Shown: positions 1-6,465, counted from the first letter of the stretch. The stretch: DNA of 6,465 nucleotides from a virus (IMGVR_UViG_2778261313_000001:1-6465); one strand, 5' to 3'. Notes: generated from the letters alone by a model not told the origin. Made by a program: numbers and translations.

Positions 1-84
1 CGGTTCAAAGCTCTGCTGAACAATTGCGATCTTTTCCTGTGTGGTACGCCGTCTGCGTTTCTCCGGCCCTAAGACATCAATCAT
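1..84 (-). CDS. insC: IS2 transposase OrfA (InsC), N-terminal 28 codons only (partial, continues beyond window start)
   Basis: ATG on - strand at 84..82; translation [28 protein letters not shown]; the basic RRRR stretch followed by QEKIAIV is the start of the IS3-family OrfA helix-turn-helix region. Confidence 0.85.
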
Positions 85-175
85 CTGTTCTCCAATGACT
101 AGTCTAAAAACTAGTATTAAGACTATCACTTATTTAAGTGATACTGGTTGTCTGGAGATTCAGGGGGCCAGTCTA
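1..175 (-). mobile_element. IS2 (IS3 family) insertion sequence, terminal ~175 bp including the inverted repeat; the rest of the element lies left of the window
   Basis: Reverse complement of 1-84 encodes [28 protein letters not shown], which I recognise as the N-terminus of IS2 OrfA/InsC, with GGAG Shine-Dalgarno upstream of its ATG. Positions 86-175 match the IS2 terminal region as I recall it, ending ...GATTCAGGGGGCCAGTCTA at 175. Identification is from memory, not a search. Confidence 0.88.
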
Positions 176-179
176 ATTC

Positions 180-782
180 TTGGTTAACATGGATAGTATT
201 AAGGGGTCTGGTGCATATTTCCCTATTATCGCTGGCTATAGTAACTTAGGTGATGTTGGTTATCGTCAGTCCTTCGAGTTTGGTTGGACGGGTAGCGGTT
301 CGACTCACGGTTGGCGTACTGGTATTATCCGTATGCGTGGCGATAACGCCAACGGGCAGCAAGCACGCTGGGAATTTACTATGGATGGTGACTTTACCGC
401 AGGTCGTAACGGTAGCTTTAACGATGTTTACATTCGCTCTGACTCCCGTTTGAAGATTAACAAGGAAGAATTACAGGACGGCGCATTAGAGAAAGTAAAC
501 TCCCTGAAAGTCTACACCTACGATAAAGTTAAATCTCTTTCAGATGACACAGTGATTAAACGCGAAGTAGGTATTATTGCTCAGGATCTGGAAGAAGTGT
601 TGCCGGAAGCAGTAGGTATTCAATCCACCGAAGATCCAGAACAACCGGAAGCAATTAAGACTATTTCTAACTCTGCTGTTAATGCCTTGATTATTAAAGC
701 TATTCAGGAAATGGACGCCAAATATCAAGCTAAGATTGAAGCATTGACTAAAGAGATTGCCGAACTCAAAGCAACTAAATAA
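180..782 (+). CDS. 3' fragment of a tail fiber/tailspike gene with C-terminal Peptidase S74-like intramolecular chaperone domain; probably truncated at its 5' side by the IS2 insertion
   Basis: Frame is open from 177, immediately at the IS2 junction (the TAA at 174-176 is formed by the IS2 end plus one flanking base). Possible starts are TTG 180 or ATG 189, neither with a convincing Shine-Dalgarno. Motif RSDSRLK (nt 435-455) gives a Ser...Lys spacing like the catalytic dyad of S74 chaperone domains, followed by GIIAQDLEEVLPEAV, typical of that domain. The part before the motif is Gly/Ser/Thr-rich, fiber-like. Ends TAATAA at 779-784. Confidence 0.6.
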   Translation: MVNMDSIKGSGAYFPIIAGYSNLGDVGYRQSFEFGWTGSGSTHGWRTGIIRMRGDNANGQQARWEFTMDGDFTAGRNGSFNDVYIRSDSRLKINKEELQDGALEKVNSLKVYTYDKVKSLSDDTVIKREVGIIAQDLEEVLPEAVGIQSTEDPEQPEAIKTISNSAVNALIIKAIQEMDAKYQAKIEALTKEIAELKATK

Positions 783-790
783 TAAAAGTC

Positions 791-807
791 GGGGGACTAG
801 TTCCCCC
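791..807 (+). terminator. GC-rich hairpin (GGGGGA-CTAGT-TCCCCC) after the fiber gene; weak terminator or RNA stability element
   Basis: 6-bp stem with 5 G:C pairs and a 5-nt loop, 8 nt past the stop; followed by an A/T-rich stretch but no immediate U-run. Confidence 0.3.
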
Positions 808-838
808 ATAATAACAATTTTAATTAAGGGGTAATTCT

Positions 839-1309
839 ATGTCTCAATTTAATGATATTTTTACTGGTGGTCTGGTAAGTCTGTTCTATCACGCTGATAC
901 CACTAACACCGCTCTCGATCACTCCGGTTACGAAGAAATTAAAGAGTGTGCTGGTTTTCCTGAAACTGGTATCGAGCGCGGTACTGTAGAAGTTAAATCC
1001 TTCTCTTCTCAGTATAACCGTAAGCTGGTAGGGAAACTGAACGTTCCTGATCTGACTCTGACCGTTAACTACATCCCAGGCGATGCGGTGCACGAGAAGC
1101 TCATTAAAGCTGCCGAAGACGGTACTCGAATTCAGATTAAGATTGAATACTATGTTGATGCAGCAAAACAGACTGGTATTCGCACCGCTTTCAACGGCTT
1201 TATTTCTAAAGTTGCTATGAACGGTGGCGATGAAGAAGTTGTAACCAAAGAGTTTACCTTCGCGGTGGACGGAAAGCCGATCAAACAGGAAATCTTCACT
1301 GCCGGATGA
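839..1309 (+). CDS. major tail tube protein, lambda gpV-like tube domain (156 aa); in-frame UGA stop followed by 41 sense codons to TAA at 1433-1435
   Basis: Shine-Dalgarno AAGGGG at 826-831, 7 nt before ATG 839. The segment DLTLTVNYIPGDAVHEKLIKAAEDGTRIQIKIEY lines up with the lambda gpV segment [34 protein letters not shown] as I recall it. Position upstream of the chaperone pair and tape measure gene; terminator downstream. Confidence 0.75.
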   Translation: MSQFNDIFTGGLVSLFYHADTTNTALDHSGYEEIKECAGFPETGIERGTVEVKSFSSQYNRKLVGKLNVPDLTLTVNYIPGDAVHEKLIKAAEDGTRIQIKIEYYVDAAKQTGIRTAFNGFISKVAMNGGDEEVVTKEFTFAVDGKPIKQEIFTAG

Positions 1310-1440
1310 ACTAACGAAGAACTTCCTTTAATAGAACCGGAACCACTACCGGAACATGAAGCGGTGGTGATTCCAGAAGTAGAAGAAGTTACGGCGAAAG
1401 CCACAGCAAAACGAGGCCGCAAGGCTAAGAATTAATTTTA

Positions 1441-1468
1441 AGCCCTGCCTTAATGGTGGGGCTTTTTT
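1441..1468 (+). terminator. rho-independent terminator after the major tail protein region
   Basis: Stem AGCCCTGCC (1441-1449) pairs with GGTGGGGCT (1455-1463), 9 bp including 2 G:U pairs, loop TTAAT, followed by TTTTT at 1464-1468. It begins 6 nt after the TAA at 1433-1435. Confidence 0.7.
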
Positions 1469-1483
1469 ATTGGAGTAATCAAA

Positions 1484-1990
1484 ATGGCAAATGTCGTTAA
1501 TAAGCCCGGCTGGGTCGGATCATCTGCTGTATCGGTGACGGGTAAGCGATGGATGAAAGAAGCATTAACAGCTTTAAAAGTTCCGGCTCCGCGTAATATG
1601 TCGGCAATGGCTGGTCGTGGTATGGATACGGTTGTAGCTACTGCATCGTGGTCTACTTCATTGGGTAATAACTGGGGTGTAACTGCTTCAAACTATCCTG
1701 TTTCCGGTATGCAAAGCAAAGGATCTATGGAGAACCCCGAAAACGTGGGCGTAGGCCGTCTAATTGGCGTTATCGTTGGTCAATTCAATGGCGGTACTCC
1801 TACTATGGCTGTATATCTCCAGAACGGTAGAGCGGGGAATATAACCGTTAATTTGGGTGGTGCTGCTGTCACTGTTCCTTATAACAGTATGCAAAGTGGT
1901 TTTCATTACTACTGGTTAAGCAATCCTCCGGCAGCTTTCCTCAATAACATTAAGAAGACTGGCACTAAGCAGACTTTGAAAATCTCTTAA
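1484..1990 (+). CDS. hypothetical protein (168 aa), Gly/Ser/Thr/Asn/Ala-rich and acid-poor, no obvious signal peptide; function unknown
   Basis: Shine-Dalgarno GGAG at 1472-1475, 8 nt before ATG 1484. 507-nt open frame in AT-rich DNA; co-oriented with and sandwiched between the major tail and chaperone genes. Confidence 0.7.
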   Translation: MANVVNKPGWVGSSAVSVTGKRWMKEALTALKVPAPRNMSAMAGRGMDTVVATASWSTSLGNNWGVTASNYPVSGMQSKGSMENPENVGVGRLIGVIVGQFNGGTPTMAVYLQNGRAGNITVNLGGAAVTVPYNSMQSGFHYYWLSNPPAAFLNNIKKTGTKQTLKIS

Positions 1991-2032
1991 ATTCTAAATA
2001 AACATATCGAATTAACTTAAGAGGAAACAAGA

Positions 2033-2341
2033 ATGAATATTAATGAAATGCTGAAAGCTCTTTCTCCGAAACGCGAATCTCTGACCATCGGTGGATTCAC
2101 TTTCTATGCTCGCCCTATGTCAGTAAAAGAATTTAACGAACATGTTTTCAATACCGATAAAGATGACCGTGATGAACGTTCTATTCTTCGTTGTATTGAA
2201 GATGAAGACGGTAAACCAGTATTTGAATCTATGGAACAAGTTAAGGCACTGTATACTAACGTCCGCAGTGAATTAATCGGTTTGGTTGCTCAAGCGTCAT
2301 TGATGCAAGATCCGACAGTAATTGAAAACGAGGTAAAGTAA
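2033..2341 (+). CDS. tail assembly chaperone, gpG-like (102 aa)
   Basis: Shine-Dalgarno AAGAGGA at 2017-2023 before ATG 2033. Small acidic protein directly upstream of the tape measure gene, with an overlapping -1 frame ORF downstream. Confidence 0.75.
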   Translation: MNINEMLKALSPKRESLTIGGFTFYARPMSVKEFNEHVFNTDKDDRDERSILRCIEDEDGKPVFESMEQVKALYTNVRSELIGLVAQASLMQDPTVIENEVK

Positions 2342-2712
2342 ACCCGCTTCTGAATTTCTATTTTCGGCAAATGATGCGATCGGGGCTTAGTAAAGATGAA
2401 ATGGATAATATGCCAATCACTCTGTTTTGGAAATTATACATTTTCGACACCTACTTAGAACCACAAAGCCCCGCGTTTCATGATATGCAGAATGCGATGT
2501 TGCAATATTCCATGTATATGACGTCGCAAGGAATGACACGCGAAACTGCACGCAAACTCAAGCCTAGCCAATTCCAATTAATTAGAGAAGAAAAACTCTT
2601 TAAAACTAAAGAAGAACTGGAAGAAATTGCACGCAAGAAAGAAGAAGAACGTAAAGCGGCAATGCTGAACATGTTTGATCCATCTTTGCTTGAGAAACTC
2701 AGAAGCGGTTAA
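2326..2712 (+). CDS. gpT-like segment of the tail assembly chaperone, probably expressed as a G-T fusion by -1 ribosomal frameshift near 2333-2341 (fusion would span 2033..2712)
   Basis: The -1 frame is open from 2326 (TGA at 2323-2325 closes it upstream), overlapping the last 16 nt of the G ORF, and runs to TAA at 2710-2712. The first in-frame ATG (2371) has no Shine-Dalgarno (preceding sequence TTTTCGGCAA). Confidence 0.6.
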   Translation, partial: KRGKVNPLLNFYFRQMMRSGLSKDEMDNMPITLFWKLYIFDTYLEPQSPAFHDMQNAMLQYSMYMTSQGMTRETARKLKPSQFQLIREEKLFKTKEELEEIARKKEEERKAAMLNMFDPSLLEKLRSG

Positions 2713-2723
2713 AGGGGTAATTT

Positions 2724-5153
2724 ATGACAAAACATATAGTAACAATAGAAGGGGATAATAAAGGTCTAAGGAGAAGTACCAATGAAGCCGCCGACCTTCT
2801 CGATAGTTTGTCTGAAAAGGCAAGTAATATTGATTTTGGTGGTGGCTTATCTGGTCTGACTGGATCTCTTCGTGGGATCGCTGGCTCTGCTGGTTTGGCT
2901 GCTGGTGGTATCGGCTTAGTTGCGACCGCAGTGGTTGCAGCCGCTAAAGCTGGCGCGGAATACGTTAAACAATATTCAGAAGTATCTAAGGCGACCGGAC
3001 TCTCGATTGAATCCCTTCAAAGACTGGAAAAGGAATTTTCTGGTACTGGCCTAACAGTTGAAAAATTCGGTGATATCAACAAAGACACCTTAGATAAGAT
3101 GGGTGATGCATGGGCTAACGGTGGTGGTATTGCTGATGACTTAGAATCGGTTGGTCTTAAGTTAGAAAACTATGCTCACTTCATGACAGATCCGCAAGGT
3201 GGTATGAAAGCGGCGATCCAAGTGTTCTATGACATGAAGAAAGCCGGAAAATCAATGGCTGAAATCAAGTTCATGATGGAATCTTTAGCCAGTGATTCAA
3301 GCCATATGACCAGCCAGCTTGAGAAATATAATAGTGCTCAAGAGGCGATGATCGCTATTCAGAATCAATCTGTTAACGTCACCGAAGAAAACGCTAAAAA
3401 ATATGATAAATTTTCTCAGAATATTAATAAGCTGGAAAATAACCTGAAAGGCGCAGCCATGACCATTACTGGTCCTTTGGTTGATAGCTTAAACTGGTTA
3501 TTTGAATGGTTTAATATTGATTGGGAAAAGAGTTCTCTATTCAGGGCATTAGACCGTCTGAATAAAGAAGGTAAGACCGCAACTGGTGGTATTCTTAACA
3601 CCAACCATAAAGACGCTCAAAAGATTATTGACAAGTACAATAAAGAAAAGCGTTGGAATAATCTAGCAGATTGGGAAAAGGCCGCGATCCGTGGTGCTGG
3701 TGTCGATCCTCGTACTGCTGGCTTTGATGTAGAAGGATTTAAGAAACGTTTTGGTGGGTCTTATAAGAAAAATGGTGCTCTGATTGTCGTAGATGCTGGT
3801 GAACATCTGACACGCAAGGCAGATCCTAACACTGATTTAACTCTACCAAATAAACCAGTAAGACCAGAATCATTGGGTAAATCTGGCAACGAGAAGAAAG
3901 CCGAGGAAGAAGCACGCAAGAAAGCGGAAGAGGCAGCTAAAAAGGCTAAGGAAGCCGCAGAAAAAGCACAGAAAGAACGTGAGGATGCAATCAAGCGTCT
4001 GAATGCACTTGATGTTAAATTGCAAGGGCAAGTTGCAGCGTCTATTGCTTCTCAAAACAAGCAGTTAGAAGCCAGCTTGAAAGATTTGGATACTGCTTTA
4101 GATCTGGGCTTAATCTCTCAGCAAGACGCAGCCGCGAAACGCCAATCCTTAATCGATCAGAATACTGAAAACGTATACAAGATGATTTTAGGTGCTGATC
4201 CGGTTGATGCTCTGAATGCTTTAACACAATTGCAACAAATCAGGGATAATGAGTTAGAAAGCCATAAACGGTTACTTGATGGTAAGGCTATCTCCTACGA
4301 AGAATATATGCGTCGTGTGAATGATACCGAACAAAGTTATTCGCAGATTGAAGATTCTTTGCATGGAATGGATGGTTTTAAAACCAATCAGTTGACCAAT
4401 AGCTTAGACTATCAGGACTCAAATAATCCGTTTGCTAAATTTAATGCAATCGATAAAGAGAAATCGGAAGCCGAACAAGATTATAAAACCGATAAACTCA
4501 AGATTGATGGGATCACCGATCCGGCTAAACGGATGGAAGAATTAGAAAAACTCAATGAAAACCATCAAAAACGAATGGCTGCAATTGAGAAGAAATATGC
4601 TGATGCTCGCCAGTCAATAGCCGATGATATGTACGGCGGTTTTGCTGCTGCAATGACTCTCTTCGGGCAGGAAAACACTAAAGCTATGCAGATGGCTTTC
4701 AATGCTCATAAAGCATTCTCTATCGGACAAGCGACGGTGAACATGTGGACGGCTGCTACCGATGCATGGAACGATCCGACCAACGTAACCACAGGTCAAA
4801 AAATCGCTGCTGCTGCATTGGCTGTTTCTCAGAACATGGGGAACATCGCAAACATCAAGTCTACTAACGTTAGCGGTATGGCTCATGATGGTATCGATAA
4901 TATCCCTCGTGAGGGTACATGGTTGCTTGATAAGGGTGAACGAGTAGTTGATCAGCGTACTAACGGTGATTTGAAAGACTTCCTTGCTGCTCAAAAATCA
5001 GGCGGTGGCAACTCTCAGCCGATTGAAGTTAACGCACCTTTGAACATTAACGGCAACGTTAATAGCTCAGACAAGATGGTCATGGATGCTATCAAACGTC
5101 ACGCTAAGTTAGTTGCTCAGGCGGTAGAAGACGCACAACGCCGTAAGATGTAA
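2724..5153 (+). CDS. tail length tape measure protein (809 aa)
   Basis: Shine-Dalgarno AAGGGG at 2712-2717 before ATG 2724. Largest gene, directly after the chaperone pair. Gly-rich hydrophobic segment near the N-terminus (GGGLSGLTGSLRGIAGSAGLAAGGIGLVATAVVAAAKAG), a K/A/E-rich coiled-coil block (KKAEEEARKKAEEAAKKAKEAAEKAQKERE), and a second hydrophobic segment toward the C-terminus. Confidence 0.9.
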   Translation: MTKHIVTIEGDNKGLRRSTNEAADLLDSLSEKASNIDFGGGLSGLTGSLRGIAGSAGLAAGGIGLVATAVVAAAKAGAEYVKQYSEVSKATGLSIESLQRLEKEFSGTGLTVEKFGDINKDTLDKMGDAWANGGGIADDLESVGLKLENYAHFMTDPQGGMKAAIQVFYDMKKAGKSMAEIKFMMESLASDSSHMTSQLEKYNSAQEAMIAIQNQSVNVTEENAKKYDKFSQNINKLENNLKGAAMTITGPLVDSLNWLFEWFNIDWEKSSLFRALDRLNKEGKTATGGILNTNHKDAQKIIDKYNKEKRWNNLADWEKAAIRGAGVDPRTAGFDVEGFKKRFGGSYKKNGALIVVDAGEHLTRKADPNTDLTLPNKPVRPESLGKSGNEKKAEEEARKKAEEAAKKAKEAAEKAQKEREDAIKRLNALDVKLQGQVAASIASQNKQLEASLKDLDTALDLGLISQQDAAAKRQSLIDQNTENVYKMILGADPVDALNALTQLQQIRDNELESHKRLLDGKAISYEEYMRRVNDTEQSYSQIEDSLHGMDGFKTNQLTNSLDYQDSNNPFAKFNAIDKEKSEAEQDYKTDKLKIDGITDPAKRMEELEKLNENHQKRMAAIEKKYADARQSIADDMYGGFAAAMTLFGQENTKAMQMAFNAHKAFSIGQATVNMWTAATDAWNDPTNVTTGQKIAAAALAVSQNMGNIANIKSTNVSGMAHDGIDNIPREGTWLLDKGERVVDQRTNGDLKDFLAAQKSGGGNSQPIEVNAPLNINGNVNSSDKMVMDAIKRHAKLVAQAVEDAQRRKM

Positions 5154-5158
5154 TTAAA

Positions 5159-5203
5159 AGCCCCCATAGTCATAAATAATCATAAAACTATGGGGGCTTT
5201 TCT
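5159..5203 (+). terminator. strong hairpin terminator after the tape measure gene; its 3' arm contains the Shine-Dalgarno of the next gene
   Basis: Perfect 12-bp inverted repeat AGCCCCCATAGT (5159-5170) / ACTATGGGGGCT (5187-5198), 16-nt loop, followed by TTTTCT and then ATG at 5204. Confidence 0.7.
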
Positions 5204-5764
5204 ATGTTCAAATCCAAGAATATTAAAATCACAGATTTTACTCTTAAATCAAAACAGCCTTTCTTCAAGGCGCAATCTATCTCCGGTAAATTTCAACGTC
5301 GCTTTACTGGCATTCATTTTTACGAAGCAGAATTTACCGCGAATTACATGGCTCAGGATATTAACGAAGTAAAAGAATTTGTAGCACGTCACCTTTTTGG
5401 TCGTCCTTTTAGTGTGCCACTGTCTTACTTTTCAAAATATACAGGTGATGTACGCCAGATGGTTACGGCTGCTGCTGGTACTGCTCGCGGTGGGCGTAAG
5501 GTGAGAATCTCCAACTTCACCGGAACACTGAAAGCGGGAACTATCATCCAGTTTGAGAACCACAAGAAAATCTACACGATCACCGAAGATGTGAAATCAG
5601 GTGGCGAAATGAAACTCTTCCCTAATTTGCGTCAGAACGTCCTGGCTGGTGAGGTGATCAAGTATCAGAACGTAGAAGGTGAATTTGTTCTCAAAACGGA
5701 AAATATCGATTGGAAGATCGCCCAGATTGGCAAGATGAAATTCGAATTAGTGGAGAATGTATAA
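5204..5764 (+). CDS. minor tail protein immediately after the tape measure gene (186 aa); candidate distal tail or tail tip assembly protein
   Basis: ATG 5204 with GGGGG (5192-5196) 7 nt upstream; stop TAA 5762-5764. Assignment rests on synteny only. Confidence 0.75.
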   Translation: MFKSKNIKITDFTLKSKQPFFKAQSISGKFQRRFTGIHFYEAEFTANYMAQDINEVKEFVARHLFGRPFSVPLSYFSKYTGDVRQMVTAAAGTARGGRKVRISNFTGTLKAGTIIQFENHKKIYTITEDVKSGGEMKLFPNLRQNVLAGEVIKYQNVEGEFVLKTENIDWKIAQIGKMKFELVENV

Positions 5765-6393
5765 TGGCAACTATTCAGGAATCATTCAGCAAACTATGCA
5801 CTAATCTGGACTTCATCGAGGTATACAACGACCAGACAGGTCAGAATGTGTCTAGATTGACTCTACCGCAGCTTTTCTCTACTGGCTCGATGTTTCACAT
5901 TATCGAAGTGATAACAGCGTCAGGGGACGTTCTACGGCTTACAGATGGGTATTTCGATTTGGACTATAACGGTTTTACATATCTCGCAACGGGTGATTTT
6001 CTTCAAATCTCATCGAATACCGAAGAGAAGGAGATCAACAACAACGGGATCAACGTAACTGTTTCTAACGTTCGCGAAGAATACATTAGCCTGATTCGAA
6101 ACAAGCAATTCGATAAATCTGATGTGAAAATCGAGATGGTTTTCCTTAACCCCAACACGGGCAAGGTTGAAACTACTTACCCTGTTTTCCGTGGGGTAGT
6201 CGATTCCATCGGTATTAACATCGAACATGAAGATGATGAGTGTAAAAACGAATCAGAATTTCAGCTTAATAGTATCTGGGAAGTTCTAGATAAAAACGCT
6301 CGTAGTCATGCCTCCGATGGTATCCACCGATCCTATGTTGGAAACGAGAACGATCTATTCTTCTCTCGTGCCGGGAAGTGGCAAAGCGGGTAA
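5764..6393 (+). CDS. minor tail / tail tip protein, 3'-truncated by IS1; phage-derived part is 5764..6388 and the stop codon comes from the IS1 terminus
   Basis: ATG at 5764-5766 overlaps the upstream stop (TAATG) with GGAG at 5752-5755; the track's 5710 start would overlap the upstream gene by 55 nt and is less likely. The frame runs into the IS1 terminal repeat that begins at 6389; the last codon GGG spans the junction and TAA 6391-6393 is IS1 sequence. Confidence 0.7.
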   Translation: MATIQESFSKLCTNLDFIEVYNDQTGQNVSRLTLPQLFSTGSMFHIIEVITASGDVLRLTDGYFDLDYNGFTYLATGDFLQISSNTEEKEINNNGINVTVSNVREEYISLIRNKQFDKSDVKIEMVFLNPNTGKVETTYPVFRGVVDSIGINIEHEDDECKNESEFQLNSIWEVLDKNARSHASDGIHRSYVGNENDLFFSRAGKWQSG

Positions 6394-6465
6394 TGACTCC
6401 AACTTATTGATAGTGTTTTATGTTCAGATAATGCCCGATGACTTTGTCATGCAGCTCCACCGATT
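6389..6465 (-). mobile_element. IS1 insertion sequence, terminal 77 bp (right inverted repeat end); the element continues beyond the window
   Basis: 6389-6465 reads GGTAATGACTCCAACTTATTGATAGTGTTTTATGTTCAGATAATGCCCGATGACTTTGTCATGCAGCTCCACCGATT, which I recognise as the reverse complement of the IS1 right end, including the 23-bp terminal repeat GGTAATGACTCCAACTTATTGAT. From memory, not a search. Confidence 0.88.
6404..6465 (-). CDS. insB: IS1 transposase InsB, C-terminal ~20 codons (partial)
   Basis: - strand translation ends ...[21 protein letters not shown] with stop TAA at 6406..6404, matching the InsB C-terminus as recalled. Confidence 0.8.
   Translation of the reverse strand, partial: [19 protein letters not shown]

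Follow-up and report, generated by a model that had tools for sequence, protein, structure and literature searches.

An IS1 insertion at the 3′ end of a tail-tip hub gene in a decaying Escherichia coli siphovirus prophage

IS1 is an element of ~768 bp that encodes InsA (zinc ribbon) and InsB (DDE) by frameshift and generates a target duplication of 8-9 bp. Its insertions are classically polar in both orientations, and this polarity is Rho-dependent. Insertions of IS1 have been described in E. coli operons and prophages, including P1 and SfIV. The locus reported here shares with them the element itself, a target within a coding region, termination of translation in the IS end and the expected polarity. 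The mechanism is no different; only the target, the hub gene of a prophage integrated in hicB, sets this case apart. The IS-mediated decay of cryptic E. coli prophages is likewise a close parallel. As in that process, IS1, IS2, other IS3-family and IS110-family elements were found in structural genes of related strains, and strain L73 retains an IS-bounded remnant of three genes; we noted no difference of importance.

For the interrupted gene, the closest described systems are tail-tip hub proteins. Phage lambda gpL consists of HDI followed by a C-terminal domain, and the latter completes the HDII-insertion domain of gpJ, a split arrangement found in lambda and RcGTA (PMC10721106). The C-terminal [4Fe-4S] binding domain of gpL involves Cys173, Cys182, Cys205 and Cys212 (PMC10721106). 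In T5 and DT57C, HDI is the N-terminal part of pb3, a single chain of 949 aa that comprises HDI-HDIV, the plug and FNIII (PDB 7zhj, 7zqp, 8hqz). In RcGTA, g13 (PDB 6tba/6teh) is a protein of 292 aa with an HDI of the DUF2163 type and an iron-sulfur C-terminal domain.

Here we describe a stretch of viral DNA of 6,465 nucleotides (IMGVR_UViG_2778261313_000001:1-6465), referred to below as the window, which ends in IS1. It is very probable, on the joint reading of the evidence, that transposition of IS1 hit the 3′-terminal part of the hub gene in a decaying E. coli siphovirus prophage, that the hub product is truncated and that the tail no longer functions.

The prophage segment between two insertion sequences

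The window is a prophage tail segment bounded by two different insertion sequences (Table 1). The region belongs to a prophage that is present in 56 of the 5426 complete E. coli genomes searched. In its intact form this is a siphovirus-type prophage of ~40 kb that lies in hicB and has a large serine recombinase at its right end (L012, NZ_CM149869.1 2446000-2495900), and even the intact copy bears IS2 insertions. The best match among complete E. coli genomes was the uninterrupted prophage of E. coli HCP5S3_I4, which is 99.98% identical over window positions 176-6388. Integration of the prophage splits hicB, the antitoxin gene of the hicAB toxin-antitoxin locus.

At the left end of the window, the match to IS2 stops exactly at the IS2 terminus. 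The element cuts a tail-fibre gene of 3609 nt (1202 aa) after nt 3002, and native sequence resumes at position 176, which corresponds to nt 3003 of the gene. The apparent ORF of 200 aa at 180-782 is only the C-terminal Peptidase_S74 (intramolecular chaperone) remnant of this tail-fibre protein.

Table 1. Coordinates of the features discussed in the text (window positions)
Feature	Position	Strand	Basis
IS2-like element (IS3 family), terminal 175 nt, ends ...GGGGGCCAGTCTA	1..175	-	96% identity to annotated IS2 end in L001:16822-16996
Tail-fibre gene remnant, last 607 nt (~201 codons + stop)	176..782	+	Mapping onto intact 1202-aa gene; PF13884 E=8e-15
Tape-measure gene (TMP), 809 aa, intact	2724..5153	+	Annotated 'phage tail tape measure protein' in the HCP5S3_I4 prophage
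Distal tail protein (Dit) gene, intact; stop overlaps hub ATG	5204..5764	+	phrog_1302 E=1.5e-16; weak pb9 B domain match
Truncated tail-tip hub gene (HDI domain; gpL / pb3 N-terminus / RcGTA g13 analog)	5764..6393	+	ORF, intact allele, PF09931, pb3, Foldseek
GGCAAAGCG, predicted 9-bp target duplication, given a simple insertion	6380..6388	.	Breakpoint position
IS1, first 77 nt, entered from the insB-proximal inverted repeat (IRR)	6389..6465	-	100% identity to annotated copies
TAA stop	6391..6393	+	Bases 3-5 of the IS1 terminal repeat

Two further features of the segment were observed. A gene for a Gp38-like tail-fibre adhesin of the T-even type (PF21721 Gp38_N, phrog_1121) is located at 1484-1990, between the tail-tube gene and the tail assembly chaperone genes. 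This position is unusual for a lambda/T5-like siphovirus tail module, and the tube gene separates the Gp38-like gene from the tail-fibre gene. In addition, two ORFs occupy the chaperone position (2033-2341 and 2326-2712); the second is in the -1 frame and overlaps the first by 16 nt, an arrangement that resembles a G/GT frameshift pair. This overlap (GAAAACGAGGTAAAGTAA) showed no canonical X XXY YYZ slippery heptamer.

Identity and conservation of the hub protein

The tape-measure gene in the window is followed by Dit and then by the hub gene, and the statement of the first-pass annotation that IS1 lies within the second gene after the tape-measure gene agrees with this order. The genes of the intact prophage are arranged as TMP, Dit, hub, DUF6950 and a gene for a protein of 1258 aa with Ig_GpJ_C and Phage_Tail_Tip domains. 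Pfam family PF09931 (Phage_phiJL001_Gp84_N / DUF2163; 'baseplate hub protein, N-terminal attachment domain') matched the truncated hub with 26.5 bits and the intact hub with 26.3 bits, both marginal with respect to the cut-off of 26. RefSeq labels close alleles as 'DUF2163 domain-containing' or 'baseplate hub domain-containing' protein, and PHROGs assign the product to a tail protein family. The family profile, compared with the PDB, matched residues 14-179 of the T5/DT57C baseplate hub pb3 (E=2e-18). Top Foldseek matches of an AlphaFold model were DT57C/T5 pb3, the RcGTA hub (6tba_7A) and tip proteins of JBD30, Chi and R4C, all with a probability of 1.00. Judged by Pfam, by homology and fold, and by gene position, the product is an HDI hub-domain protein of the siphovirus tail tip.

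The AlphaFold model was built with 50 sequences and had a mean pLDDT of 76; with only the 16 close homologs, pLDDT was below 50 for residues 171-217. The last residues in the 50-sequence monomer form a low-confidence coil (pLDDT ~58), for which reason the monomer model was not used for structural claims on the lost residues.

Like lambda gpL (PDB 8iyd and related structures), the hub is a stand-alone HDI protein of ~220-230 aa, has a C-terminal segment after HDI, and is encoded after Dit and before a central fibre protein of the gpJ type. Unlike gpL, it does not have the four-cysteine [4Fe-4S] motif: C12 and C159 are the sole cysteines of the intact hub, and residues 171-217 are free of cysteine. 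Because this iron-sulfur motif is absent, we consider the protein a functional analog of gpL and not a member of the gpL family. Foldseek detected only a weak similarity to the lambda tail cap, at rank 12 (E=3e-3), the gpL Pfam family was not among the reported matches, and DUF6950 stands in place of gpK/gpI. The N-terminal HDI of T5/DT57C pb3 is the best match by both sequence and fold (E=2e-7 for the fold) and falls in the same Pfam family. In contrast to the single chain of pb3, HDI is here a separate product of 217 aa, and the rest resides in the 1258-aa gpJ-like protein. RcGTA shares the HDI type and the order Dit, hub, small protein and large tip protein, whereas the iron-sulfur C-terminal domain of g13 is absent from the window protein.

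A profile search of 1.84 billion representatives yielded 457 relatives. In an alignment of 50 sequences, extending down to 15-20% identity, two positions (G144 and D197) are invariant and another two (F200 and W212) reach at least 90% conservation; no other position does. Residues 171-217 (window 6274-6388 plus the lost tail) form the most conserved part of the cysteine-free stand-alone HDI family, and conserved positions within them are W172, R180, H182, D185, H188, R189, G193-N-E195, D197, F199-F200, G204, W206, E209 and W212. This segment stands where gpL and g13 have their Fe-S domain, which suggests a different docking to the J-like protein. By analogy with these systems, residues ~171-217 would contact the gpJ-like protein.

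The IS1 junction and the lost C-terminus

Across the end of the hub gene into IS1, the window reads ...TCT CGT GCC GGG AAG TGG CAA AGC GGG TAA TGA CTC C.... Direct reading and the ORF listing agree that the ORF from ATG 5764 terminates at TAA 6391-6393, and a longer TTG-started ORF (5710..6393) shares this stop. The IS1 end starts at 6389 with the inverted repeat GGTAATGACTCCAACTTATTGATAGTG... and occupies the 77 nt that remain to the window end. These 77 nt (6389-6465, GGTAATGACTCCAACTTATTGATAGTGTTTTATGTTCAGATAATGCCCGATGACTTTGTCATGCAGCTCCACCGATT) are 100% identical to the annotated IS1 of SfIV, P1 (AF125376), GER2 and RCS47, and have IS1 matches in 4962 of 5426 complete E. coli genomes. Identity with the uninterrupted HCP5S3_I4 prophage ends exactly at 6388, and in the DNA alignment to the intact allele the window departs into IS1 after ...GGCAAAGCG. 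With the breakpoint at 6388/6389, the stop codon is donated by the IS1 terminal repeat, as had been proposed from the sequence. Depending on the entering frame, this IS1 end gives a stop after 0, 6 or 26 codons, 0 being the frame used here.

The transposase genes of IS1 are encoded on the minus strand, against the direction of the tail operon, and the window ends within the element. Sister contigs extend it further: IS1 continues for 737 of 768 bp beyond the same junction in L003 (GCA_024354905.1), a minus-strand DDE_Tnp_IS1 fragment adjoins the hub gene in L011, and DDE_Tnp_IS1 and Zn_ribbon_InsA domain fragments are present at the ends of L011. By its terminal inverted repeat and, via the sister contigs, by its organization as an InsA/InsB element of ~768 bp, the element at 6389 is assigned to the IS1 family.

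The intact hub gene of HCP5S3_I4 has 654 nt and encodes 217 aa, ending in ...FFSRAGKWQS-ESKWFSSKK before the stop; the intact allele of strain L73 ends in ...GRWQSESKWHSSKK. IS1 inserted 26 nt upstream of the native stop. The truncated product has 209 aa, namely 208 native residues and one Gly (GGG 6388-6390, two bases of which come from IS1), and nine of the 217 residues (4%) are lost, ESKWFSSKK, including W212. Thus, the native C-terminus is missing, since the intact allele goes nine codons further than the window ORF, and the alignment to uninterrupted homologs, proposed earlier for estimating the loss, sets it at nine residues. The description of the tail-tip gene as truncated needs qualification: the gene is cut, but the term overstates the physical damage at nine residues.

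None of the 16 close (47-98% identity) or 34 remote homologs ends at ...WQS; all run 7-10 residues on, and these extensions pass through a conserved E and W. The 16 close full-length homologs have 214-220 aa and all go past ...W(Q/N)S with E209 and W212; E209 is invariant among them. With W212, the lost tail therefore includes a residue that ranks among the family's four most conserved. As every homolog runs past the breakpoint, the truncation of the gene is genuine. The first-pass annotation had named one outcome that would speak against it, homologs ending in ...AGKWQS, which would place IS1 just beyond the natural stop of a complete gene. The chance of this is practically nil, and we regard the idea as refuted, both by these 50 homologs and by the allele of the 99.98% identical prophage, which is nine codons longer.

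The window begins in IS2 and ends in IS1, as would a short-read contig collapsed at repeats, and the junction could in principle be a chimeric assembly artefact in which a prophage contig was joined to an IS1 repeat. We give this a negligible probability, as an identical 41-nt junction was detected in nine contigs (NCBI, ENA and Logan) from different projects and assemblers, one junction contig reaches 737 bp into IS1, and the truncated protein has its own RefSeq accession. The exact 209-aa product is RefSeq WP_249439951.1, 'hypothetical protein', and 44 index blocks of the assembly collection contain it. NCBI gives Escherichia coli as its source, and a Shigella carrier, which the high IS load had suggested, was therefore dismissed. 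The occurrence of the same allele in nine contigs and 44 blocks indicates that it is inherited. The truncation is an inherited allele of one E. coli lineage, so far seen only in short-read assemblies: contigs encoding the exact protein are all <10 kb and none spans IS1.

Neither the complete E. coli genomes nor IMG/VR contained the left junction, and its sole match in JGI metagenomes was OJKF01000294.1. This contig (L004/L013, ERZ1743105 NODE_294), likewise 6465 nt long, clearly represents the same locus, with an offset of 49 nt and one mismatch relative to the window. It has 126 nt of IS at either end, compared with 175 and 77 nt in the window.

Tail function, the far side of IS1 and decay of the prophage

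We propose the following sequence of events. A full-length IS1 would have transposed into the hub gene of a lambda/T5-like siphovirus prophage, 26 nt before the native stop. Translation would read one codon (Gly) over the junction and stop at the TAA of the IS1 repeat, giving the 209-aa product without ESKWFSSKK. By homology with gpL and pb3, the C-terminal segment of the hub would pack against the N-terminal part of the gpJ-like protein; the deletion would take a family-conserved Trp from it, and docking of the hub to the gpJ-like protein would probably be impaired. The untranslated IS1, at least 770 nt long and read antisense to its own genes, would block transcription of DUF6950 and the gpJ-like gene by polarity. 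Together, IS1 in the hub and IS2 in the tail fibre would represent a cryptic prophage dismantled by insertion sequences in one lineage.

A terminator scan found no intrinsic terminator-like site in IS1 in the operon orientation, and the polarity argument therefore draws on the established behaviour of IS1. We infer that hub function is lost, that the insertion is polar and that no tails are made. The tail is likely non-functional, considering W212, the expected polarity and the IS2-cut tail-fibre gene. On these grounds, the view of the first-pass annotation that the module probably cannot build a functional tail holds as a likely outcome and not as a demonstrated fact.

Against a functional loss, only 9/217 residues are gone, which form a low-confidence coil in the monomer, and such a loss might be tolerated. 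Were the truncation harmless, the 209-aa hub would assemble, the downstream genes would be expressed and the tail module would work. The small fraction of the protein lost, the coil, the terminator scan and the intact state of the other window ORFs are consistent with this reading, which we nevertheless consider improbable: W212 and the invariant E209 are among the residues removed, conservation of the hub is highest in the C-terminal segment, which by gpL analogy would contact the J-like protein, IS1 insertions are generally polar, and the tail-fibre gene in the same window is itself cut. It is very doubtful that the 209-aa hub is still functional and the IS2...IS1 tail segment is kept for host use, for example as a tailocin-like or domesticated tail, a reading compatible with the wide occurrence of the allele (44 index blocks) and with the undamaged ORFs next to it.

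A further point against a functional loss is that the window ORFs other than the interrupted genes are undamaged and share 99.98% identity with the uninterrupted prophage; the insertion is therefore recent.

Other forms of the prophage were also observed. In strain L73 it is reduced to Dit, hub and DUF6950 between IS3 and IS1, still inside hicB. An IS3-family element (HTH_Tnp_1 and rve domains; start TGAACCGCCCCGGGAATCC...), which we take to be IS629-like, is present in the TMP gene at window position 3729 (L007:1-1310, L010). Contig L011 (1-127, 368-1695) has an IS110-family element at window position 5701 and a second IS1 at 5460/5461, both in Dit; this IS1 has the same orientation as that at 6389. 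In L006:1331-3750, TMP is split into 668 and 136 aa.

Given a simple insertion, the right junction is predicted to read ...GTTGGCAGCATCACC-GGCAAAGCG-AGTCGAAGTGGTTTAGC... (also GCAGCATCACC GGCAAAGCG AGTCGAAGTGGTTTAGCTCTAAGAAATAA), corresponding to the IS1 IRL, the 9-bp duplication and the displaced 3′ end of the hub gene. The search pattern consisted of the IS1-IRL, 6-12 nt and the displaced 3′ end (AGTCGAAGTGG..., AGTCGAAGTGGTTTAGCTC), and its IRL part fits this IS1 variant (L011, L002). The pattern was absent from JGI metagenome contigs, GTDB representative genomes and IMG/VR, and a synthetic right junction gave no megablast match in the 5426 complete E. coli genomes. The carrier contigs, without exception, break off within IS1. 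As the right junction has never been seen, a simple insertion is still unproven, and the genes beyond IS1 may no longer be there at all.

It is possible, if on the unlikely side, that IS1 at 6389 is instead the edge of an IS1-mediated deletion or rearrangement, with the last 26 nt of the hub gene, DUF6950 and the gpJ-like gene no longer adjacent or gone. The right junction was missing from four collections, including JGI, which does hold the left-junction contig. The three-gene remnant of L73, bounded by IS3 and IS1, and the second, same-orientation IS1 in Dit of L011 indicate that IS-bounded deletions do happen in this prophage. However, absence from the collections argues weakly here, as the lineage is represented only by short-read contigs of <10 kb, the one metagenome contig has ~8x coverage, and short right-hand contigs may not be stored. 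Moreover, IS1 is contiguous over 737/768 bp in L003 with no sign of truncation.

In summary, the case is a routine IS1 insertion in a decaying prophage, with no new mechanism and with a truncated product that was already in RefSeq. Within the lineage, the prophage is still decaying. For annotation, WP_249439951.1 can be recorded as the IS1-truncated allele of a 217-aa tail-hub protein, and the prophage of the carrier lineage should be scored as defective. The IS1 insertion could serve as a clonal marker of this E. coli lineage. For the family as a whole, the C-terminal D-x-x-F...W is the most conserved feature of stand-alone, cysteine-free HDI hubs, and it points to contact with the gpJ-like protein.
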